In this document: piece by piece, positions 37,367 through 50,100 of the stretch
How positions within the stretch are numbered: the stretch's first letter is position 1
Layout: every line of letters starts with the position of its first letter
The notes under the pieces: generated by a model
Database searches by the model: none
The model's input: the letters and a program-made list of their open reading frames with translations, nothing else
Told to the model about the DNA's origin: nothing
Position numbers and translations under genes: made by a program
DNA from: an uncultured Chloroflexia bacterium
Lineage (GTDB): Bacteria; Chloroflexota; Limnocylindria; Limnocylindrales; CSP1-4
Assembly: GCA_963810065.1 (NCBI GenBank)
Contig: CAWELX010000007.1
Span: 1,170,154-1,234,153, forward strand
Length of the DNA: 64,000 bases
Direction of reading: 5' to 3'

Positions 37367-38170
37367 ATGGGGGCGGAGATGCTGCAGCCGCGGCCGGCTG
37401 CGCTCCTTCCGGTGGGCCTCGATCCGGCGCCGGACGGCATACGCATCGTCGCGCTGTCGGGCAACGCGACGGGTGGCAGCGCACTGGATGAGGTCCACGC
37501 CAGCGACAGAGAGATCCATGCGCGCCTCTTGGCCGCCCAGGAGGCTGAACGGGCACGGATCGCTCGAGACCTCCATGACGTCGTCGGCCAGGCGCTGACG
37601 GCGGTCCGGCTCAATCTCCTGTGGCTGGATCGTGTGAACGCGCGGACCGGGGCGAGCGGGGCCGAGATCAGCGACAGCATCGCCGTCGTCGATGCGGCGC
37701 TCCACCAGGTTCGCACGGCGGCCTTCGACCTGCGGCCCGCGATACTCGACGACCTCGGGCTCGGCGCCGCGCTGCGAGCGCTCTGCCGCCAGGTCGCGCT
37801 CCGGTCCGACATGGACGTCTCCTGCCGCGTGGCCATCGGCAGGTCGCGCCTCCCGGCCGAGATCGAGACGACGTGCTTCCGGATCGCCCAGGAAGCGATC
37901 ACCAACGTCGTCCGACATGCCGGGGCACGCAGAGTGGAGGTCGACGTCCGTTGGCGACGGCGGTCGGGCGTGCTGATCCTCGACGTGTCCGACGACGGCG
38001 TTGGTTTCGACCCGACAGTCGTCACCTCGACGAGGTGCCTTGGGCTCGCCGGGATGGCCGAGCGCGCGTCGCTCGTGGGGGGCGATGTCGAGGTCCGCTC
38101 GGGGTCCGGCAACGGGACGAGGATGATCGCCCGCCTGCGGGTCCCAACGCGACGGGACGTCGTCCGATGA
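37367..38170 (+). CDS. Soluble (no TM) HisKA_3-type sensor histidine kinase
   Basis: ATG at 37367. H-box RARIARDLHDVVGQALTAV, ..RIAQEAITNVVRHAGA...DDGVGFD..GLAGMAERA. The stop overlaps the RR start (ATGA 38167-38170). Confidence 0.75.
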   Translation: MGAEMLQPRPAALLPVGLDPAPDGIRIVALSGNATGGSALDEVHASDREIHARLLAAQEAERARIARDLHDVVGQALTAVRLNLLWLDRVNARTGASGAEISDSIAVVDAALHQVRTAAFDLRPAILDDLGLGAALRALCRQVALRSDMDVSCRVAIGRSRLPAEIETTCFRIAQEAITNVVRHAGARRVEVDVRWRRRSGVLILDVSDDGVGFDPTVVTSTRCLGLAGMAERASLVGGDVEVRSGSGNGTRMIARLRVPTRRDVVR

Positions 38171-38832: not shown

Positions 38833-39148
38833 GTCCCTGCCGTCGCGCGCCCGGGCAGCTCAGGTCCTGACCCCGGCTTCGCCCGGGTGCGGATGGCGCA
38901 GGTTCCGGGTCCACCCTTAGGGGTGAATGCGCATCCGCCCCGATGGGCGGAACTCCGCAGTCCGCGCAGCATCCATCGACGAGTCGCTCCCCCGGGGGGG
39001 GTAGGCGCCTGGCGGCCAGGGTGGCAGGGGACCACCGGCTCGCCGGGCCGCGGCGACTCGCAAGGGGGGAAGATTGCGCCAGGGTGGGGGAAACCCGACG
39101 GGGCGGGGCGTTGACGATCGTGCACTCGGCGCCCCCGAGCGTGGATCC

Positions 39149-41335
39149 ATGGACGTTCGAGGCGACCGGGCCAGCGTGAGCCGTGCGGCCCGCCGCCTCG
39201 GCTTGCGGCTGGCGGTTGTCGCGGCCCTGGCTCTCGCCCTGCTCCTCGCCGCGTCCCCCCTCGCCGCCCCCGGCGTCCGCGCTGCCGCCCCGCGGGTGGC
39301 GATCATCGTCGGCCCGGTCGGGAGCCTGACCGCCTACTACCGCTCCGACGCCGAGAAGGCGGCCGCCGAGGCGCGCCGGTACACCGACGACGTCGTGACG
39401 GTCTACTCGCCCGACGCCACGTGGAGCGCGGCGCGGGCGGCGATGCAGGGCGCCTCGCTCGTCGTCTACCTGGGCCACGGCAACGGCTGGCCCAGCCGCT
39501 ACAGCAGCCGGCTCAACCCGCGGACCCAGGACGGCCTGGGGCTCAACCCGGTCGCCGGGCAGGGCAACCTCGCCCACCAGTACTTTGGCGAGGCGTACCT
39601 CACCGACCGGGTGACCCTCGCGCCCAACGCGGTGGTGGTCCTGAGCCACCTGTGCTACGCCTCGGGCAACTCCGAGCCCGGCCTCCCCGAGGGGACCCTC
39701 GCGGTGGCGAAGCAGCGCGTCGACAACTTCGCCGCGGGCTTCCTGGCGGCGGGCGCGTCCGCCGTGATCGCCGACGGCTATCTCGGCCCCGCCTACTACG
39801 TGCGCTCGATCCTCGCCGGGCGGGGCACCGTGGAGGGGATCTGGCGGGACGCGCCGAACTACCACGACCACGTCATCGCGTTCAAGAGCGTGCGGACCCC
39901 GGGCTTCACCGCGCTGCTGGACCCCATCAGGCGCGCGAGCGCGTTCTACCGCTCGCTCGTGACGCGCGCGGACCTGCGCTCCGGCGAGGTCGCCCGGGGG
40001 ACGGCCTCGGGTGCCGCTGCCTCGCGCGGTCCCGTGCCCGGGCCCGGGACGCCGCCGAGCGGATGGGAGGTCGTCCTCCCGCCGCAGCCTTCGGTCGCGC
40101 CCGACGCCTTCGACCTCGGGGCACAGCCCGGCACGCCGACGCTCACGGGGATGCCGCTGGCCGCCGCCACGATCCAGCTCCAGGTGCCCGTGGAGGTGCC
40201 CGCCGGGGTGACCCTTGGGACTGCCTACCGTCTGGGCACCCGCTGGATCCCGCTCGACGAGGCGGACGCGCCGGCCGATCCCGCGGCCAGCCCCGACCCC
40301 GCGGCCAGCCCCGATCCCGGCCCCAGTGCCGACCCGGCGGCCAGCCCCGACCCCGGTGCCAGCCCCGACCCCGCGGCCGGCCCCAGTGCCGACCCGGTGG
40401 CCAGCCCCGATCCCGGCCCCAGTGCCGACCCGGCGGCCAGCCCCGACCCCGCGGCCAGCCCCGACCCCGCGGCCGGCCCCAGCGCCACCGCCAGCCCGGG
40501 CACCGGGGCAGCCGACCCTCCGGATCTCGTCGCCCGCGAGTCGGCTGCGTCGCTCGTCGACGTCGTCCCCGCGACGGTCGCCTTCGGCGGGGTCACGGCG
40601 TCCGTCAACCTGCCGGCCACGAGTGGGCGCTACCGCCTGGAGGTCACCCTCCACGATGGCGACGGGGTCGTCCTCCCGTACGCGGTTCAGGCCGCGATCC
40701 CGGCCGTCGTCGTCCACGTCGGGGGCCCGGGCGCCGCCTGGCTCGACGCGCCGCCGTCCGTCTCGCTCAACGCCGGCACGCTCGCCTCCCTCCAGGTTGT
40801 AGCCACCAACGGCGAGGCGACGGCGTGGGGCGTCTGCACAGCCGGGCCGTCCCCCGCGGGCGCCGAGGCCGCCGCTTCCTGCCCCACCGTCCGCCTCGTC
40901 GGCCGCTGGGTCGCCCTCGCTGGAGGCGGCGGGACGGCGGCGCCGATGACCCGCGAACTCGCTGTCCCGGCCGCGACGGCGCAGACGACGTGGCTGTCCG
41001 GGCCGGTCCCCACCGAACCCGGCACTTACCTCCTCGTGGTCAGCCTCGAGCGCGCCACGGGTGATGGCCCGCCGCAGGTGCTGGGCCGACCCGTCACGGT
41101 CATGGTCCTGGTGGCCGCCGCTCCGCTGCTCCCGATCCCAGCTGACAGTCCCGCGCCGCTGCCAGCGACGCCGGGCGGCACCGACCCCGCGACCGTGCCG
41201 CTGTTGCCGACGGGTGGCGACGTCGATTCGACGCTCGTGCCGAGCGGCGGAAGCCTGCTTCCAACTCAGCCCGACTCAACCCCAGGACCAAGTGTCAGCA
41301 GCCCGCCCAGGGCCGAAGAGGGAGGTGGCCAATGA
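39149..41335 (+). CDS. Secreted protein, paralog B of 31062-32798 (caspase/gingipain-like His...Cys domain + PASPD-repeat linker + beta-rich C-domains + Pro/Thr-rich tail)
   Basis: Signal-like N-terminus (..LRLAVVAALALALLLAASPLAAPGVRA). RVAIIVGPVG...GASLVVYLGHGNG...AVVVLSHLCYASG has the same motif spacing as paralog A. A long 5' leader precedes it. The stop overlaps the next gene's start (ATGA 41332-41335). Confidence 0.55.
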   Translation: MDVRGDRASVSRAARRLGLRLAVVAALALALLLAASPLAAPGVRAAAPRVAIIVGPVGSLTAYYRSDAEKAAAEARRYTDDVVTVYSPDATWSAARAAMQGASLVVYLGHGNGWPSRYSSRLNPRTQDGLGLNPVAGQGNLAHQYFGEAYLTDRVTLAPNAVVVLSHLCYASGNSEPGLPEGTLAVAKQRVDNFAAGFLAAGASAVIADGYLGPAYYVRSILAGRGTVEGIWRDAPNYHDHVIAFKSVRTPGFTALLDPIRRASAFYRSLVTRADLRSGEVARGTASGAAASRGPVPGPGTPPSGWEVVLPPQPSVAPDAFDLGAQPGTPTLTGMPLAAATIQLQVPVEVPAGVTLGTAYRLGTRWIPLDEADAPADPAASPDPAASPDPGPSADPAASPDPGASPDPAAGPSADPVASPDPGPSADPAASPDPAASPDPAAGPSATASPGTGAADPPDLVARESAASLVDVVPATVAFGGVTASVNLPATSGRYRLEVTLHDGDGVVLPYAVQAAIPAVVVHVGGPGAAWLDAPPSVSLNAGTLASLQVVATNGEATAWGVCTAGPSPAGAEAAASCPTVRLVGRWVALAGGGGTAAPMTRELAVPAATAQTTWLSGPVPTEPGTYLLVVSLERATGDGPPQVLGRPVTVMVLVAAAPLLPIPADSPAPLPATPGGTDPATVPLLPTGGDVDSTLVPSGGSLLPTQPDSTPGPSVSSPPRAEEGGGQ
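40264..40500 (+). repeat. Coding tandem repeat (~18-24 nt units, gccagccccgaccccgcggcc-like) encoding (PAASPDP/GPSADPAASPDP)n inside paralog B
   Basis: Direct reading. The protein reads ADPAASPDPAASPDPGPSADPAASPDPGASPDPAAGPSADPVASPDPGPSADPAASPDPAASPDPAAGPS. The stretch is absent from paralog A, which has a single PAASPDPAA. Confidence 0.7.
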
Positions 41336-41979
41336 CCGCGACGACGATGGGCCAGTCTGACGCCCGCGCCAGCGCCCCCGAACCCCGCGCCGGTCGGGCC
41401 GACGCCGGGTTCCGCCTCCTGCCCGGCCGGGTGGTGGTCTACGCCTGGCTGCTGGCGGCGGTTCCGATCGCCCTCCTGCAGCTCGTGCACGCCGGCGTGC
41501 ACGAGCACCACGAGCTCCCGCCGGTGCTCCACTGGCTGCGCGACACGGCCCTTGCCGTGCCGCTCGCCGCTGTCGCGGTCGTCGTCGCCGCGCTCCTCGT
41601 CTCCAGGCTCCGACCGACGGAGCCGGGGGGGCGCGCGTCGTTGACGACCATGGCGCTCTGGGGGGCGCTCGCCGCCCTCCTGTTCGCCGCACTCAGCATC
41701 CCCGGAAACCAGATGCACGGCCTGCTGTTCGGCGCCGAGGAGGAAGAAGGCGTCAGCCTCCTCAACGACCTCGCGGCCGACGCCCTGTATGCGTTGGAGG
41801 CGGCGCTCCTCGTCATCGCCCCCATCGCGCTGCTCGCCGGGGTCCCCTGGCGGGGCGCGTGGCGGGCCACTCCATCCATGCAATCGGCCCAGGGTGCCGC
41901 GGCGATGGTCGCCGCGCCAGATGGGCCACTCGAGGCGCCCGCGAACGCGGGAGCGACCCACGACGGAGGCGATCGATGA
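41332..41979 (+). CDS. Hypothetical integral membrane protein (His-rich loop HAGVHEHHELPPVLHWL)
   Basis: 215 aa with 4-5 hydrophobic helices. It is translationally coupled to paralog B upstream (ATGA), and its stop overlaps the first mini-ORF ATG (ATGA at 41976-41979). Confidence 0.5.
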   Translation: MTATTMGQSDARASAPEPRAGRADAGFRLLPGRVVVYAWLLAAVPIALLQLVHAGVHEHHELPPVLHWLRDTALAVPLAAVAVVVAALLVSRLRPTEPGGRASLTTMALWGALAALLFAALSIPGNQMHGLLFGAEEEEGVSLLNDLAADALYALEAALLVIAPIALLAGVPWRGAWRATPSMQSAQGAAAMVAAPDGPLEAPANAGATHDGGDR

Positions 41980-42073
41980 ACGACACAGACCAGGTCGCCT
42001 CCGTCACCGCAGGAGGCGACAGATGAAGAACAGGCACCACGACGCCTCCATCACCGCGGGAGGCGATCGATGA
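41933..42073 (+). repeat. Three tandem 47-bp units, each ending GGAGGCGA(T/C)(C/A)GATGA (an SD-like GGAGG plus ATGA stop/start overlap). They create two 16-codon mini-ORFs (41976-42026 MNDTDQVASVTAGGDR; 42023-42073 MKNRHHDASITAGGDR) chained between the membrane-protein gene and the giant-protein ORF
   Basis: Direct reading: units at 41933-41979, 41980-42026 and 42027-42073 (period 47, ~75% identity, the last 20 nt nearly identical). Each unit's TGA overlaps the next ATG. The upstream membrane protein ends ..THDGGDR and both peptides end ..TAGGDR. Confidence 0.6.
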
Positions 42074-42141
42074 GCAGCAGCGACCACCGCGCCTCCGGGG
42101 CCGGCCTTCGACGGGCAACCAGGAACGAGGAGTACCAGGCA

Positions 42142-45100
42142 ATGGGTCATTCGCGAACAGGGCACCGGCCCAGGACGCTTCGGTTCCTGGGCATCTGGCT
42201 CGCCAGCGTGGCGATGATCGTGACGCAGCTGGCCGCGCCGGTGGCACAGGCCGCTCCGATCAACACCGCCGCCGCCACGCCCGCCGCGGCTCCGGCCGCC
42301 CCGACGAGCACGATCACGTTCGCGGTGAAGGCCGCGCGCACGGAGCTGAATGCCTTCGACGGGGCTCCGCGCACAGCGCTCCCCGCTGATCCGGCGGTCC
42401 CAACCGGGGTCAAGGAAGGCGACCCGGTCACCGCCTACAAGTGGATCGTCAACGAGGACAACACCGGCCAGAACACCACGCGCAACGCAGACCCCGGGTC
42501 GGCCTGCTCCGCATGGCTCGACGCCGCCCACACGGCTCCCAACCCGAACTACCCGGGTTCCTGCAAGTGGACTTCCATCGCCGGCCTCGCGAGCTCTGCC
42601 CCGGTCGCGGCCCAGGGCGACGAGACGACCGCCGACGGCACCTTCACGATCTCCAGCCTGGCCCCCGGCCGGTACCTCATCTCGGTGCTCGCCGACGGCT
42701 ACAAGCTCGACGGCGCCCCCTTCAGCGTCCCGATGGAGGCACCAGGCGTGGTCGACGTGCCACTGCAGCCGAGCCCCCTGCCGACCGCGACCATCAAGGC
42801 GCAGGTCTTTGACGACGTCACGTCGGCCAACGGCCAGTACGATCCCGGTGAGGACGGCCTGCCCGGGTTCGCCGGCTTCATCACTGACTACATCGGCCAG
42901 GTGACGACCGACGTCTTCGGCAACCCGCTGTGCACGAAGTACGAGGCCGGTGACGGGCCCAACGGGTACGCGTGGGTCGACGGCGCGCCCGTCGTCGCCG
43001 CCGACTCCCACGGTGGCAAGTGCCTGTCGGGCGACGCCAACATGGACGGCGTCGTGGACGCGGCCGACATCCCGCTGTACAGCGACCCGCAGCTTGGCCC
43101 GGGCGTGCTGACGATCCCGAACCTCGGCCCCAACCGTTACGCCCTGTCCGTCGTCCCGCCAACCGGCTCCAGCTGGGTCCAGACGACCACCCTCGAGGGC
43201 AACCACGACTGGGATTCCTGGGTGATGGAGGGCTCCACCGGCCTCGACACCGAGTTCGTCGTCGCCGGAGAGCCGTTCCCGGCCCAGATCTTCGGCTTCG
43301 TTCCCGGCCCGACGACCGGCGCCTGGACACATCCCGCAACCGGGACCTCGAAGCCGTATGGCGACAGCTTCGCCGCCGGCGGGACCGGCACCATCAAGGG
43401 CGTCGTGGACGCCATGAAGGTCTATGTGCCGACCAAGGGCGGCCAGTGCCTGCCGGGCACGATCTGGGGCGGCCTGTGCGGAGGGAAGGTCGACAAGCCG
43501 ATCGACAAGCCATGGATCGCGCTCAGCGATCTCAACAGCGGCGACACGGCCGTGTGGATGGGTCGCGGCAACGCCGACGGCACGTTCACGATCCCGCACG
43601 TCCCCGACGGCAGCTACACGATCACCTACTGGGACGAGCCCCAGAACTACATCCTCGATCTGCTCAACGTGACCGTGGCCAACGGCGAGACCGTCGACAT
43701 GGGGGTCCTTCCCCTGACGGGCTGGTTCACGAAGTTCGACGGCCATGTCTTCAACGACCTGAACCGCAACGGCAAGCAGGACGCCGGCGAGCCCGGCGTG
43801 CCCGACTTCACCCTGACCTTGCGCAAGCGCGAGAACTCGCTCATGGACCGCGGCGCGACCCTGGTCACGACCGACGCCAACGGCTACTACGTCATGGAGA
43901 ACGCCTACCCGCTCACGGAGTGGCTCGTCCTCGAGGCGTACAACGACCGCTACTACACGACCGGCGTCACCTATCAGGCCGACAACCAGCCCACGAAGAC
44001 CACGGTCCTGGGGGCCGGCGTCGACGTCAGCGTCCTGCCGATCATCGGCCTGTCCGGCCGGCTCGACTGGGGGGTCCACTTCTACGATCCGACCGGCGAC
44101 AACGGGATCGACCCGAAGAACGGCGGGATCGTCGGGTCCGTCAGCTACGACACCACCCGCAACGAGGTCAACCCGCAGTACGCCGTGGCAGAGGACTGGC
44201 AGCCCGGCGTCTCCGGCCTGACGGTCGACCTGTTCGCCCCGGTGCCCTGCCCGACGGACGGCAGCCAGCCCTGCGACGCCAACGGCGACTACGCCCTTGC
44301 GCCCGACGGGTCGTATGCCCGCGGCAAGCTCCTGAACACGTACGTCACCGAAACGTGGCAGAGGCCAACCGACTGCATCGCCCGCGGCGTGGATGGGACG
44401 CCTCTCGCCAACCCGGCCGACCAGCAGGTCCTGCCGGTCGGTCCGACCAAGGACTGCCTCGAAGGCCCCCTGATGGGGGTCCAGTTCGGGCCGTACCCGA
44501 CCGACCAGGGGACCGCCGACGCCAACTTCGGCGCCGCCGTCGACGGCAACTACGGCTTCGGCGACGGCTGCTTCAACGGCACGCTGGACGCCACTGACCC
44601 CGCCAACCCTGTCTGCGACGGCGGCACGTTCGAACCGCTGCCTGCCGACGACTACCTGGTCCACGTCAGCAACGTCAACGATCAGCAGGGCAACCCCGTC
44701 TACCACTTCACTCGTGAAGAGGACATCAACATCGCGACGGGCGACAGCTACGTCCCGCAGATCCCGCCGCCGGCCTGCGTCGGCGCGCTCCACACGGTGG
44801 ACGTGGCCGGCACGCCCGTCGACGCGAACAACAACCCCACCGACAACTACCCGGCGACGCAGATCCCCGACCCGTCCGGCCTCGGCTCCGCCACGATCTC
44901 GGTGCCGGCCTCGACGCCCACGGACAACCCTACCTTCGTCGGCATCGGCGGCTCACCCTACGAGGGCCTGGCCAAGCCGCTGTGCGACACGAAGCTCGTG
45001 TCGCTCCAGGACGGCAAGTCGATCGTTCCCGGGTTCAACGTCTTCACCGACGTGCCGCTCCCGAGCCGCTTCTTCGCCTACAACGTCGATGACCTCAACT

Positions 45101-48100
45101 TCTCGACCGACCCGAAGTCGCTGCTCTATGGAGAGAAGGCGGGCCTTCCGTTCACCCCCGTCGGCATCTATGACTTCGCCGACCGCCTGGTCACCACGTC
45201 CGAGACCGACTACAACGGCCTGTTCGACGTGCTCCTGCCGTCGACCGACCGGATCAGCTGCCCGACGCCATCGGGCGTCTGCGGCAACGTCTACCGCTTC
45301 GTCGGAAACGACCCGGGCATCCCCGGTCGCCTGAACACGAACTACAACCCGCAGTACCGGACGATCGCGGCCGACTTCGAGGCCTGGCCGGGCATCATCG
45401 TCCCGGCCGACACGGCGCCGACCCAGGTGGGCGTGACGATCCAGCTGCCTGGCACCACGACGTTCCAGGCGGTCTCGTGCCCGGTCAACGACCCGGCGGT
45501 CGCACCCACGACGCCCGAGCTCTACGCGATCGACCGGCCGTACGGCTACTCGGGCGATCGCTTCACGATCACGGGCCAAGGATTTGGGTCCACCCGCGGC
45601 ACGGTCAACTTCGACGGCGTGCCGCTGCCGAGCAACAACAACTGGGTCGTCTCCTGGACCCCCACCTCGATCACGATCGAGATGCAGAACTACGCCCAGG
45701 CGGCGGCCGGGCCGCATCAGCTCTCGGTCACGGCCAGCAATGGCAAGACCACGGTCAACGGGCTGACCTACCACTACCTGCGAAACGTCAACAACGCCGC
45801 CAACCGGTACCTGCCGCCGATCCTGGAGGTGGGTCCGAACGTCGCGCGAATCCGCGCTATCGGCCGGCCAACTCGCTCCCGGCTGCGGCCAACCACGCGA
45901 TCCAGAACGCGCTGGACGACGCTCCCGCGGGCGCGCTCGTCGTCGTCTATCCGAACACGCCGAGCGCCAATCCGCGGCTGAACCCGCGTGGCGCGTACTA
46001 CGAGAACCTCATCATCTCCAAGCGGGTGAAGCTGCAGGGCGTCGGCCCGGGCAGCCCCGACGGCAAGGTGCGCGGCACGATCATCGACGGCGGCGCGTTC
46101 GCCGGCGACAGCCCCGTGGCCGCGGACTGGTACACGACGATCGGCAACCTGGCGTGGGCCGGGAACCAGACCATCTACGACGGCGCGGACATCTCGATCT
46201 TCGTGCCGAGCAGCGGTAGCAGCGCCTTCCCGACGTCGTACGACGCCAAGACCGCACCGTCCGTCGACGGCTTCGACCTCCGCGGCGGCGACCAGCAGGG
46301 CTTCCCCGGCAACATCAACGTCATCGGCGGCGGGCCCACCGGTCTGCCCGGCGGCCTGGTGACCCAGGGCGGCGCCATCTTCGCCAACGCCTATGCCCGC
46401 AACCTGCAGATCACGAACAACGTGGTCCAGAACAACGGTGGAGCCTACGGCACGCTCCGCATCGGGACGCCGGACCTGCCGGCCCCCGACACGAACAATC
46501 ACAACGAGGGCGTCCGGATCGCCAACAACCGCATCATCGCCAACGCCGGCACCAACCTGGCCGGTGGCATCGGGATCTTCGCCGGCAGCGACGGCTACAC
46601 CGTCGCCGGCAACGACATCTGCGGCAACTTCTCTGCCGAGTACGGCGGCGGCCTGAGCGTCTACGGCCTCAGCCCGAACGGCTCCATCGACCACAACCGG
46701 ATCTACTACAACCAGTCCTACGACGAGGCGGGCGGGATCATGATCGCCGGCACGCTGCCGGTCGACCCGAACGCGAACTACGGGACGCCCAACGGCCCCA
46801 AGGGCTCGGGCTCCGTCGCCATCCATGACAACCTGATCCAGTCCAACCTCGCCAATGACGACGGCGGCGGGATCCGGTTCCTGATGGCCGGCGACTTCCC
46901 GATGAACGTCTACAACAACATGATCGTGAACAACGTGTCGACCCACGAGGGCGGCGGCATCGCCATCGACGACGCCCCCAACGTGCGGTTCGACAACAAC
47001 ACGGTCATGAAGAACGTCACGACCGCGACGGCCGTGACCAGCGACGGCCAGCCGGCCCCGGCCGGCCTGTCGACGGGCCAGAACAGCGCTCAGCTCCAGG
47101 CCACGTTGCCGGGCGGCTCGGAGCTCTTCAGCAACCCGCTCCTCTTCAACAACATCTTCTGGGACAACCGGGCCGGGTCGCGCACGACGGGAAGCGGCAC
47201 CGTGACCGGCATCGGGACGCTTGACGCCAACCACTGGGACATGGGCGTCCCGGGCACGTCGTTCGTGCTCTCGCCCACCAACTCGATCCTCCAGTCCGAG
47301 ACGACGAACCACAACGACGTGGTCGCGAGCCCGACCAACACGGTCGACCAGGATCCGCGGGTGGCTTCTTCGTACGACACGGCGCTGACGTTCAGCCCGT
47401 GGCGCACGAACCCGAACTTCGTCGGCGCGATCCTTGTTGCCGCCGACCTGCCGCCGAACCTGCTCGGCAACTACCACCTCGGCGGCACCGGCTCGCCGGC
47501 CTACAACCTCGGCGCGGCGTCCAAGGCCACCATTGCCGCGCCCGCGTTCGACATCGACGGCCAGGTGCGTCCTGCGCTCGGCGGCTTCGATGCCGGCGCC
47601 GACGAGTTCTCGGGCGCCCAGGCGGACCTCTCGATCACCAAGGACGATGGCGTTAGCACGGTCAATCCGGGTGGTGCCCTCAGCTACACGATCACCGTGA
47701 CCAACGCCGGCCCCAACGGCGTGGCGCTGGCGCCGGTGACCGACAACATCCCGACAACGCTCACCGGCGCGACCTGGACCTGCTCGGTTCCGGCGGCGGT
47801 GGGCTATGCCTGCGGCGCCGCCAGCGGCAGCGGCAGCATCAACACGACAGTCAGCCTGCCGTCCGGCGGCAGCGCGACCTTGACGCTGAACGGAACGGTC
47901 GCCCCGAGTGCGAGCCTCACGCTGGCCAACACGGCCTCCGTTGCACCCCCCGCCGGCACCACCGACCCGACGCCGCTGAACAACACTGCGACCGACACGG
48001 ACACCGTCGTGCTGGACGCCATCTTCGCGAACGGCTTCGAGACGGGCGCCCGCCCGTGGGGCTGGACGAGCGCAACGCCCGCCGGCACCGGCACCGCCGC

Positions 48101-48641
48101 CACGAATCGCCTGAACGTGACGGCGGGCGGGGCTCTCGTTGGCAACCTCGGCCTGCAGGCGCAGGGCAACAACACCAACTACGTCCAGTACAACTTCGGC
48201 ACCGGGGCCAACCCCGCCACGCCGACGTATGACGCGCGGTTCTACTTCCGGCCCAACGCCAACAGCTCGACCGGCAACGACATCTTCAGAGCGGCCGCGG
48301 GCACCAACAACGCGTCCTTCAACGGCCCGCTGTTCCGCGTGCGGTACCGCCTCAACGCCGGAACGCCGCAGGTCCAGATCCAGATCGGGACGGGGACCGC
48401 CAACGCGTCGTGGACGAACCTCCTCGGCGGCACGGCGAACAACGTCATCGAGGTGGTCTGGCAATCGGGGACCACGCTGCAGCTGTACGTCAACGGCGGC
48501 CTGGCGCAGACCCTGACCGCGGGCACCGGCTCGGTGATGGCAGTCCGCCTGGGCTCCGTGACGACCACCGGCAACGCCACCCTCATGTACTTCGACGCCT
48601 TCGCCTCCAAGCGCTCGGTGTCGCCCCTGGTCGGGCCGTAG
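42142..48641 (+). CDS. Giant secreted multi-domain surface protein (~2,100 aa if read through one apparent frameshift at ~45,850): Cna-B/SdrD-B/CarboxypepD_reg-like beta-sandwich repeats, IPT/TIG domain, right-handed parallel beta-helix repeats, DUF11 repeat, and a ~200-aa C-terminal domain
   Basis: ORF 42070..45981 (signal peptide MGHSRTGHRPRTLRFLGIWLASVAMIVTQLAAPVAQAAP; GTFTISSLAPGRYLISV / DGTFTIPHVPDGSYTITY / NGYYVMENAYP beta-sandwich motifs; IPT-like YAIDRPYGYSGDRFTITGQGFGSTRGTVNFDGVPL) ends in an Arg-rich out-of-frame-looking tail. ORF 45477..48641 in the +1 frame continues with beta-helix repeats (NNVVQNNGGAYGTLRIG.., IANNRIIANAGTNLAGGIGIF.., IHDNLIQSNLANDDGGGIRF.., NNMIVNNVSTHEGGGIAID), then DUF11 (ADLSITKDDG..YTITVTNAGPNG), then the C-terminal domain. 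The second ORF has no plausible start of its own. Confidence 0.6.
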
Positions 48642-48696
48642 TGCCATGCCTGACCACGACATCACCCGTCCAACCGTCGCCGAGGGAGACAACGTC

Positions 48697-50100
48697 ATGA
48701 GCGACCAGAGCAGGTTGCTGCTGAGCCGGCGCCAGGTGCTCAAGTACGGCGGGCTCACCGCCGCGGCCACGGCCGCGGCGGCCCTGGGCCCCGGCTGGTG
48801 GGGACCATCCTCCAGCCGGGCCGGGCCCTCGCCGTGGATCGTCCCCCGGACCTCAAGCTCGTCGGGACCGACGGCTGGATCTAGCTGCCAGGCCCCCAGA
48901 TCAACTCCAGCGCCTACGGCGTGGTCCACCCGGACAGCTATGCGCCCGCCGGGCGCACCGACTACATCTTCGGGTTCGCGAACGGGACGGGCGTCCCGGA
49001 CCGGGACCTGCACCTGCTCAAGAACAAGGCCCAGCACTCTGCCCCGATGTTCTGGGCCAAGGAGGGCGAGGAGTTCCGGGTCCAGCTGACGAACGTCGGC
49101 CTGGCCCAGCGCCCCGACCTGTTCGACGCCCACACCGTCCACTGGCACGGCTTCAAGAACGTCATCCCGTTCTTCGACGGCGAGCCGACCGGCTCGGTGT
49201 CGGTGCCGCAGGGCCAGACGTTCACCTACGTCTACAAGTCCCACGACCCGGGCACCTACATGTTCCACTGCCACGTCGAGGACGTGGAGCACGTGCACAT
49301 GGGGATGACCGGCCTGGTGTTCGTCCGGCCGGCCCAGGATCACGAAGGGAACACCGCCGGAGCGCCGTCTCCTGGTACGGAGCGAACCGCGCTTCCAGGA
49401 GCCATCGAGCCTCCGGGCATACCGCTCGGCTAGCCTACAACGACAGCGTCGGCCGATCATCCGGCGTCGACGGGCTTCGACCGCGAGTACGGGATGTTCC
49501 TCAGCGAGCTCTGGGCGGAGGCCCACTGGGCCGACGCCCACATCCAGCTTCCGGAGTGGAGCGACTACCACGCCGACTACGCGCTGCTCAACGGCCGGGT
49601 CTGTCCCGACACGCTCGCACCGAACGGGGGCTCGATCGACCCCTTCAACGTCGCTCGGAACGGCGACAAGACGCTGGTCGCGCCGGCCGGGCACCCGGAA
49701 CTCGGGAGCCAGCCGATCTCGTCGCTCGTGACCTGCAACGCGGCGAACGTGTCCTCCTGCGGTTCGCGAACCTCGGCTTCAAGGAGGCCGCGATGACTCT
49801 CACCGGCATCAAGCTGCGGGTCGTCGGGCGCGACGCCACGCTTCCTGCGCGGGCGCGATGCGGTGGACCTGACCTACTCTCGTCGAGACGAACACGCTGG
49901 CATTCGGCGCCGGCGAGAGCTTCGACGCGATCTTCACCGCGCCCGCCCACAGCGGCGCCGGCCCGGGCGGGTCCGACACGTACGTCCTCTACAACCGGAC
50001 GTACATCCGCGCCGACAACACGGGCGGCGGCGGCGGACAGCGCACCGAGGTGCGCGTCTACGCACCGGGCACCGTCCCGCCCAGGTACCCGAACGGCTGA
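48697..50100 (+). pseudogene. Multicopper oxidase (cupredoxin) gene 1, degraded: Tat-type signal, several frameshifts, one in-frame TAG
   Basis: MSDQSRLLLSRRQVLKYGGLTAAATAAAALG (twin-Arg signal), then the frame is lost. ..DLKLVGTDGWI-TAG-LPGPQINSSAYGVVHPDSYAPAGRTDYIFGF...HTVHWHGF...PGTYMFHCHVEDVEHVHMGMTGLVFVRP (Cu-site His motifs). Later real-looking segments (FDREYGMFLSELW..., ERVLLRFANLGFKEAAMTLTGIKLRVVGRDATLP, ..AFGAGESFDAIFTAPAHSGAGPGGSDTYVLYNRTYIRADN...) sit in three different frames. Confidence 0.5.

Follow-up and report, generated by a model that had tools for sequence, protein, structure and literature searches.

A twice-duplicated ATGA gene junction as a probable termination-reinitiation relay upstream of a giant surface-protein gene in an uncultured Chloroflexia bacterium

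We have analysed a 64-kb stretch of DNA (hereafter, the window) from contig CAWELX010000007.1 of an uncultured Chloroflexia bacterium, in which a gene for a 215-amino-acid (aa) membrane protein is separated from a giant gene for a secreted or surface protein by a tandem array with a period of 47 nucleotides (nt). The array is probably a twice-duplicated, obligately coupled termination-reinitiation junction, and we hold with moderate confidence that this relay has been kept because translation of the giant gene depends on its signals. The anatomy of the array, its distribution among orthologs, its origin from the flanking genes and its conservation pattern can be read directly from the DNA; from these we infer that the small open reading frames (ORFs) within it are translated and that the coupling is obligatory. 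An earlier note on this DNA had offered three readings: a termination-reinitiation relay, a leader-peptide attenuator and a recent slipped duplication. Of these the relay, with its presumed translation, is the best supported, as the Shine-Dalgarno (SD) sequences, their complements (anti-SDs) and the ATGA overlaps are conserved while the rest of the array drifts.

The upstream cistron, taken from the ORF list, encodes the membrane protein (41332..41979, + strand); its tail ...ATHDGGDR encodes the SD of the next cistron, and it ends in ...GAC GGA GGC GAT CGA TGA (41979). The motif GGAGGCGAnnGATGA is repeated three times with an exact 47-nt period, at 41965, 42012 and 42059, the 15-mers at these sites being GGAGGCGATCGATGA (41965-41979), GGAGGCGACAGATGA (42012-42026) and again GGAGGCGATCGATGA (42059-42073). 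The motif GGAGGCGANNGATGA has three matches in the 64 kb versus 0.2 expected, a count reached by 0 of 100 shuffles, and Tandem Repeats Finder places 2.8 copies of period 47, with 76% matches, at 41965-42096. The array consists of the original junction followed by two inserted 47-nt units, which are identical to each other at 36 of 47 positions. At the original junction (41965..41979, +), SD1 (GGAGGCG, 41965-41971) is followed by a 4-nt spacer and by ATGA (41976-41979), which joins the membrane-gene stop to the start of mini-ORF 1. Inserted unit 1 (41980-42026, +) carries the anti-SD CGCCTCC (41996-42002), SD2 (42012-42018) and ATGA (42023-42026), and inserted unit 2 (42027-42073, +) has the same arrangement, with its anti-SD at 42043-42049, SD3 at 42059-42065 and ATGA at 42070-42073.

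Two 16-codon ORFs, both in the ORF list, link the three junctions: relay mini-ORF 1 (MNDTDQVASVTAGGDR; 41976..42026, +), the ortholog of which in locus L007 is MKHTDQVATVTAGGDR, and relay mini-ORF 2 (MKNRHHDASITAGGDR; 42023..42073, +), the orthologs of which are unit u2 of L007 and the single units of L018/L020 (MKNRDQDASVTAGGDR). The ATGA overlap recurs at each of 41976, 42023 and 42070, and every unit of L001, L007 and L018 has it too. The earlier description of three junction motifs chained at 47-nt spacing via two 16-codon ORFs holds, the spacing being exact and the translations in agreement, and the third ATG, at 42070, is indeed in frame with an ATG 72 nt downstream at 42142. Other details need correction. 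The note had placed the A of each ATG on the first base of TGA, which is wrong: start and stop overlap in the 4-nt ATGA, the ATG taking up bases 1-3 and the TGA bases 2-4. It had counted three 47-bp units; the motif is present three times, but the supposed first unit (41933-41979) shares just 24-26 of 47 bases with the true units, mostly in the last ~15 nt. Finally, of the C-terminus ..(S/T)(V/I)TAGGDR that the mini-peptides were said to have in common with the upstream protein, just GGDR is common to the upstream tail and the mini-ORF tails.

Counting unit copies at related junctions had been proposed in the same note. We compared 23 distinct orthologous junctions from uncultured Chloroflexia metagenome-assembled genomes (MAGs) and metagenomes; the loci (L001 and so on) were obtained by exact-protein look-up and from species-representative genomes and Joint Genome Institute (JGI) metagenomes. 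A single SD-ATGA junction, GGAGGCGA(T/C)CGATGA, is found in 18 of the 23. Two copies (one mini-ORF) are present in L001/L006 and in L018/L020, and three copies (two mini-ORFs) in the window and in L007. In a neighbour-joining tree of the membrane gene the multi-copy loci all fall in one clade, and every outgroup is single-copy. Judged by its recurrence, the array is not an assembly artefact, because a diverged three-copy array is present in another MAG (L007) and two-copy arrays in JGI contigs L018 and L020 and in MAG L001/L006.

All six independent units are exactly 47 nt long and have a common novel joint, CCTCC(G/A)TCAC(C/G)GCnGGAGG. Over its first 16 nt the unit corresponds to codons 2-7 of the giant gene and over its last ~23 nt to the membrane-gene tail, so that each unit is a chimera of giant-gene start and membrane-gene end; the units are therefore tandem duplications of the junction itself. 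In L001 the 5' part of the unit is still identical to the single-copy consensus, GCACCCAGGACCACCG. Most simply, the distribution would reflect a single origin in the ancestor of the clade, a second duplication in the lineage of the window and L007, and a loss in L008. A stop-start relay arises only with a period of 2 mod 3 (ORF length = period + 4); a period of 47 nt puts the start of the mini-ORF in frame with the giant gene and its stop, within the next ATGA, in frame with the membrane gene. A "recent slipped duplication of the gene junction" is thus half right: duplication as the origin is supported by the flank chimeras and the 18 of 23 single junctions, but recent duplication noise is not, as the units are 23% diverged, common to species-level lineages and always 47 nt long.

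Conservation within the units is sharply partitioned. Across the six units, 1 of 18 sites varies in the anti-SD, SD and ATGA taken together, 5 of 13 in the loop and spacer, and 12 of 16 in the 5' part (5' part versus signals, Fisher p = 4.5e-5). Orthologous units differ at 1-3 sites in the 3' 31 nt versus 6-9 expected from the 4-fold sites of the adjacent genes (68-81% identity), whereas their 5' 16 nt differ at or above this neutral expectation. The spacer changes seen (GAT to GAC, CGA to AGA) retain the A needed for ATGA. Selection on the relay signals would be a simpler reading than gene conversion, since conversion would homogenise whole units, yet 5' and 3' parts contrast within them. The predicted anti-SD/SD hairpins, which the earlier note had overlooked, would account for the conservation of the 3' half, and the mini-peptides themselves look unimportant.

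The same partition bears on a regulatory-peptide or mobile origin of the array. A leader-peptide attenuator would fit short ORFs upstream of a large gene, and an inserted mobile element would fit an architecture resembling that of mycobacterial interspersed repetitive units (MIRUs; PMC12548453 section 11, PMC3184786). However, the N-terminal halves of the peptides are unconserved (12 of 16 nt variable) and hold no regulatory codon runs; a terminator scan finds none on the + strand after the mini-ORFs, and a promoter scan of the region gives zero promoter-like sites. A scan of 41000-43000 against Rfam at a permissive threshold gives sub-threshold chance matches only (e.g., Rothia-sucC, 21 bits versus a gathering score of 64.5). 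The earlier suggestion of an attenuator is therefore not borne out, and transcription attenuation is rejected on the negative promoter and terminator scans. As for a mobile element, the units are built from the flanking genes' own ends, and they occur at the orthologous junction only: with three mismatches allowed, the window has no match to the 3' half of the unit outside this junction, nor does the unit occur at other junctions in the 56 fetched loci. We regard this pair of explanations as extremely improbable.

MIRUs are nevertheless the closest analogue, and the earlier statement that no described element has such an architecture does not stand. MIRUs (e.g., that of mycobacterial senX3-regX3) are tandem intercistronic repeats of 40-100 bp, the small ORFs of which overlap the flanking stop and start at -4 nt with coupling preserved (Supply 1997, via PMC12548453 section 11 and PMC3184786). 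Shared with the Chloroflexota array are the tandem units between co-oriented operon genes, a small ORF per unit with its stop and start overlapping those of its neighbours, a copy number that varies between lineages and internal G+C-rich inverted repeats. In contrast, MIRUs are dispersed over some 40-50 loci per genome and are apparently inserted or mobile, while the Chloroflexota unit, in the window and the fetched loci, stands at one junction and is made of its own flanking gene ends. Its copy number differs between species, and no strain-level variable-number tandem repeat behaviour was seen among the compared loci. The comparison, between Mycobacterium and Chloroflexota-type MAGs, is one of architecture and not of sequence. 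As the array is neither interspersed nor foreign to its flanks, it is not a member of the MIRU family, although it would work like a MIRU array; we would class it among coupled intercistronic repeats, as a variant that arose locally on the basis of ordinary ATGA coupling.

The sequence CGCCTCC, 17 nt past ATGA, is the exact complement of the SD GGAGGCG. The RNAalifold consensus of the 23 junctions includes the SD:anti-SD helix, and pairing is kept in 21-23 of 23. A fold of the RNA over the junction, another of the checks proposed earlier, was run on 41925-42160: in the minimum free energy (MFE) structure all three SDs are paired, and the fold is better than 199 of 200 shuffles (z = -2.8). An anti-SD is predicted to pair either with the following SD, across a 9-nt loop (-17 to -19 kcal/mol), or with the preceding one, which leaves the start codon in a loop of 18-24 nt (-18.6 to -25.9 kcal/mol). 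The predicted values are -18.8 kcal/mol for anti-SD:SD2, -25.9 for SD1:anti-SD and -17.1 for the unit of mini-ORF 2; single hairpins range overall from -13 to -26 kcal/mol. Both RNAalifold and the MFE structure also contain a small hairpin, CCCGCGaaCGCGGG (CCCGCG..CGCGGG; 41938..41951, +), in the membrane-gene tail codons (the "PATAG" motif), 13 nt upstream of SD1. Slight covariation is seen in its innermost pair, which is CG in 17 loci, UA in three and AU in one.

One G+C-rich hairpin per unit, together with a fold this stable relative to shuffles, could also point to intercistronic mRNA hairpins of the REP or puf type, which would shield the upstream portion of the transcript from 3' exonucleases or mark a processing site before the 6.5-kb gene. 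This is hardly likely at all: the arms are precisely the SD and its complement, ATGA is invariant in all units, the period is held to 2 mod 3, and the spacer changes keep an A that a stability element would not need.

The obligately coupled junction that we favour would work as follows. In the ancestral state, which 18 of the 23 junctions have kept, the membrane gene ends in ...GGAGGCGATCGATGA, that is, in a strong SD within its last codons and a stop that overlaps the start of the giant gene. As long as the mRNA is untranslated, the SD would be shut away in the predicted hairpin, which encloses the start codon. A ribosome that reaches the end of the membrane gene would melt this hairpin and terminate at UGA; with its own anti-SD cleft occupied by the SD, it would reinitiate on the overlapping AUG, so that the giant protein would be made only in step with the membrane protein. 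In one clade a junction stretch of ~47-50 nt would have been tandemly duplicated, and in the lineage of the window duplicated again, each copy bringing an anti-SD, a 9-nt loop, an SD and ATGA and, with its length of 2 mod 3, creating a 16-codon ORF. Ribosomes would then be handed from the membrane gene to mini-ORF 1, to mini-ORF 2 and to the giant gene in three termination-reinitiation events, every SD being masked by a neighbouring anti-SD until a ribosome arrives. Purifying selection would keep the signals, as any broken link would cut coupled translation of the giant gene.

Several traits of the single-copy junction are those of an obligately coupled pair: the two genes overlap by ATGA, the upstream one contains a strong SD, and a complement is predicted to occlude this SD. 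Coupling was strict in 13 of 14 tested pairs with ATGA overlaps (Huber 2019, PMC6728339), structure that occludes the ribosome-binding site is a recognised feature of coupled pairs (Brown & Wade 2025, PMC12548453, section 8), and ribosomes can be "delivered" by short ORFs (Brown & Wade 2025, PMC12548453, sections 8 and 11). At the L002-L028 sites the 15-mer GGAGGCGATCGATGA is the same, even where the membrane proteins are just 43-51% identical. Against the usual bacterial 16S rRNA 3' tail, GGAGGCGAUC would match 9 of 10 positions of the full SD complement, which suggests that GGAGGCGAUC is an extended SD and would explain why the "spacer" is conserved. Most of the more distant homologues, L029-L056, run off the contig or have other junctions, and L029 (1380-1470) alone is informative. 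In this distant ortholog ATGA is kept, and the SD (GGCGGCG) and the anti-SD position (CGCCCGC) are both degenerate, an anecdotal joint loss of the two pairing partners.

Where the giant protein starts is ambiguous between 42070 and 42142. From 42070 the gene opens with a 24-codon N-terminal extension (MSSSDHRASGAGLRRATRNEEYQA; 42070..42141, +); its R-A-S codons hold the ancestral anti-SD CGCCTCC (42090-42096), and an internal SD, GAGGAG, lies at 42127-42132. These 72 nt after ATGA are in frame and open in 23 of 23 distinct loci, with TGA in their other frames, and their consensus is MSTQDnRASaAGxRRSxRSEEhQv. A tblastn alignment with the L005 giant protein begins at residue 1, i.e., at 42070. 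The alternative is the internal ATG with its own SD (42142..42249, +), which is followed by a typical signal peptide (MGHSRTGHRPRTLRFLGIWLASVAMIVTQLAAPVAQA|AP). Gene callers are split between the two starts among orthologs. The peptide SSSDHRASGAGLR would be diagnostic of the 42070 start, while the mature protein released from the signal peptide would begin AP... If 42070 is used, the signal peptide carries an unusually long, charged N-terminal extension of 24 residues.

The main rival builds on the second start: the giant protein would be made from 42142, and the junction copies would be role-less leftovers of a tolerated duplication. It draws on the internal GAGGAG/AAGGAG and ATG, which stand at a fixed position in the alignment of all loci, on the gene caller's choice of the internal start in L001, on the lack of units in most orthologs and on the apparent loss of the unit in L008. 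It does not fit the near-invariance of SD, anti-SD and ATGA in units whose adjacent 16 nt drift neutrally, the constant unit length, an extension that is always in frame and open, or a junction 15-mer that is invariant in very distant homologues. We consider this reading doubtful.

Some of the evidence nevertheless counts against the relay. With its own conserved SD and a signal peptide directly after it, the ATG at 42142 could allow relay-independent translation of the giant gene, and the coding signal of the extension is weak (codon-position entropy 0.66, 0.74 and 0.79 at positions 1, 2 and 3), as the role-less duplication would have it. L008 is single-copy and nested inside the multi-copy clade; it has apparently lost a unit, and units can therefore be lost without obvious harm. 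The multi-copy lineages are few (3-4), and the pairwise tests between them are phylogenetically non-independent. The SD:anti-SD helix shows no compensatory changes (the SD is invariant, which makes covariation uninformative), and the R-A-S codons could account for part of its conservation. In the single-copy junction of L004 this helix forms too, but in a fold no more stable than shuffles (z about 0). Lastly, the evidence comes throughout from the sequences of uncultured MAGs.

If a relay operates, its length could matter in itself. As an adaptive rheostat, each step would lose ribosomes, and selection on the number of units (0, 1 or 2) would tune, species by species, how much giant protein is made relative to membrane protein. 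Copy number does differ among related species and is identical in the two L018/L020 samples; the signals are conserved, and reinitiation efficiency varies with SD and structure (PMC6728339, PMC12548453). However, no feature of the loci tracks copy number, three states only are found in a handful of lineages, and a relay that is simply required from the time it exists would be just as conserved. We consider the rheostat very unlikely.

A related proposal, which we regard as unlikely, is a copy-number-adjustable relay born from the junction: the supply of ribosomes to the giant gene would depend on the number of links, and the junction might also be a recombination joint at which giant-gene alleles are swapped. 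The latter idea comes from a hint in L017 (3001-3590), where 100% identity to the window breaks off right at the third ATGA. This locus has three copies and is 100% identical to the window over 41,560-42,075 only, with about 75-80% identity on either side; directly past the third ATGA it is 87% identical to the L024-type giant gene. Either recombination, with a tract that stops at the conserved junction, or a chimera of assembly or polishing would account for L017. With its identity tract confined in this way, it was rejected as a third independent three-unit locus.

Our preferred reading, the obligately coupled relay, calls for no new mechanism: ATGA coupling, SD occlusion, ribosome-delivering short ORFs and tandem coupled repeats have all been described. 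Termination-reinitiation coupling at ATGA (PMC6728339, PMC10666635) shares with the array the 4-nt overlap and the SD in the last codons of the upstream gene, and the single-copy junction is a textbook case of it. Known cases join two real genes, whereas the array adds two 16-codon links of no evident product function and would entail three reinitiations in 100 nt. Coupling by RNA unfolding (phage f1 VII/IX, MS2 coat/lysis, rpmI-rplT; PMC12548453 section 8) likewise has an SD paired with its exact complement, one arm lying in translated sequence, as predicted here, so that translation from upstream should open the structure; it differs in that the anti-SD of the array is predicted to pair with the SD before it (18-24-nt loop) or after it (9-nt loop). 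In the mycobacterial short upstream ORFs that deliver ribosomes (PMC12548453, ref. 75 therein), the mini-ORF also matters only by ending on the next start codon. They are single ORFs in 5' leaders with de novo initiation, unlike the mini-ORFs of the array, which are internal, serial and fed by the upstream gene. The array combines known parts in a serial arrangement. Plasmids, too, have single leader ORFs of this ribosome-delivering kind, as in tap-repA of R1 and repY-repZ of ColIb-P9.

The array sits in an operon in the order kinase-regulator, 753-aa protein, 215-aa membrane protein, relay, giant protein and multicopper oxidase, in a window with a G+C content of 73%. The HisKA_3 histidine kinase and the GerE-type response regulator (Pfam/NCBIfam) are joined by ATGA at 38167. 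The 753-aa secreted-looking protein (39074-41335) contains a long run of ASPDP/GPSADP-type Pro/Ala/Ser/Asp repeats and has zero family matches in Pfam and NCBIfam searches; its stop overlaps the membrane-gene start, again as ATGA (GGGAGGTGGCCAATGA at 41332). The 215-aa membrane protein is also without a family match in Pfam and NCBIfam searches. Among its homologues (n = 38) the C-terminal region is variable, and the extreme tail ..PATAGsThAGGDR is kept even at 42% identity.

The giant gene (42070..48641, +) encodes SdrD B-like, CarboxypepD_reg, TIG, beta-helix and DUF11 domains (Pfam). It had been described as an ORF of ~2,100 aa; the gene is indeed large, about 2,190 codons in all, but it is not continuous, as tblastn places a frame switch between 45,774 and 45,891. 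The first frame runs over 42070-45981, and the second from there to 48641. Downstream, at the end of the operon, lies a multicopper oxidase with a twin-arginine translocation (TAT) signal (48646-49433), the gene for which is broken up into overlapping ORFs. Microflora Danica MAGs titled "uncultured Chloroflexia bacterium", which we take to be long-read assemblies, are the closest relatives. The frame switch and the split oxidase are either assembly indel errors, as they may be if the assemblies are long-read, or real pseudogenes.

If translated in the way proposed here, the array would be a clean natural instance of termination-reinitiation in series, on ORFs whose sole purpose is to hand ribosomes to the next. 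A coupled junction of this kind filters which duplications are survivable, namely those with a period of 2 mod 3 that bring along an SD, ATGA and an anti-SD. For annotation the array is a warning, as such arrays are neither intergenic spacers nor regulators. Its origin from the junction's own ends suggests a route by local duplication to MIRU-like repeats outside mycobacteria, and the copy-number-adjustable relay, if true, would show the de novo birth of MIRU-like coupled repeats.

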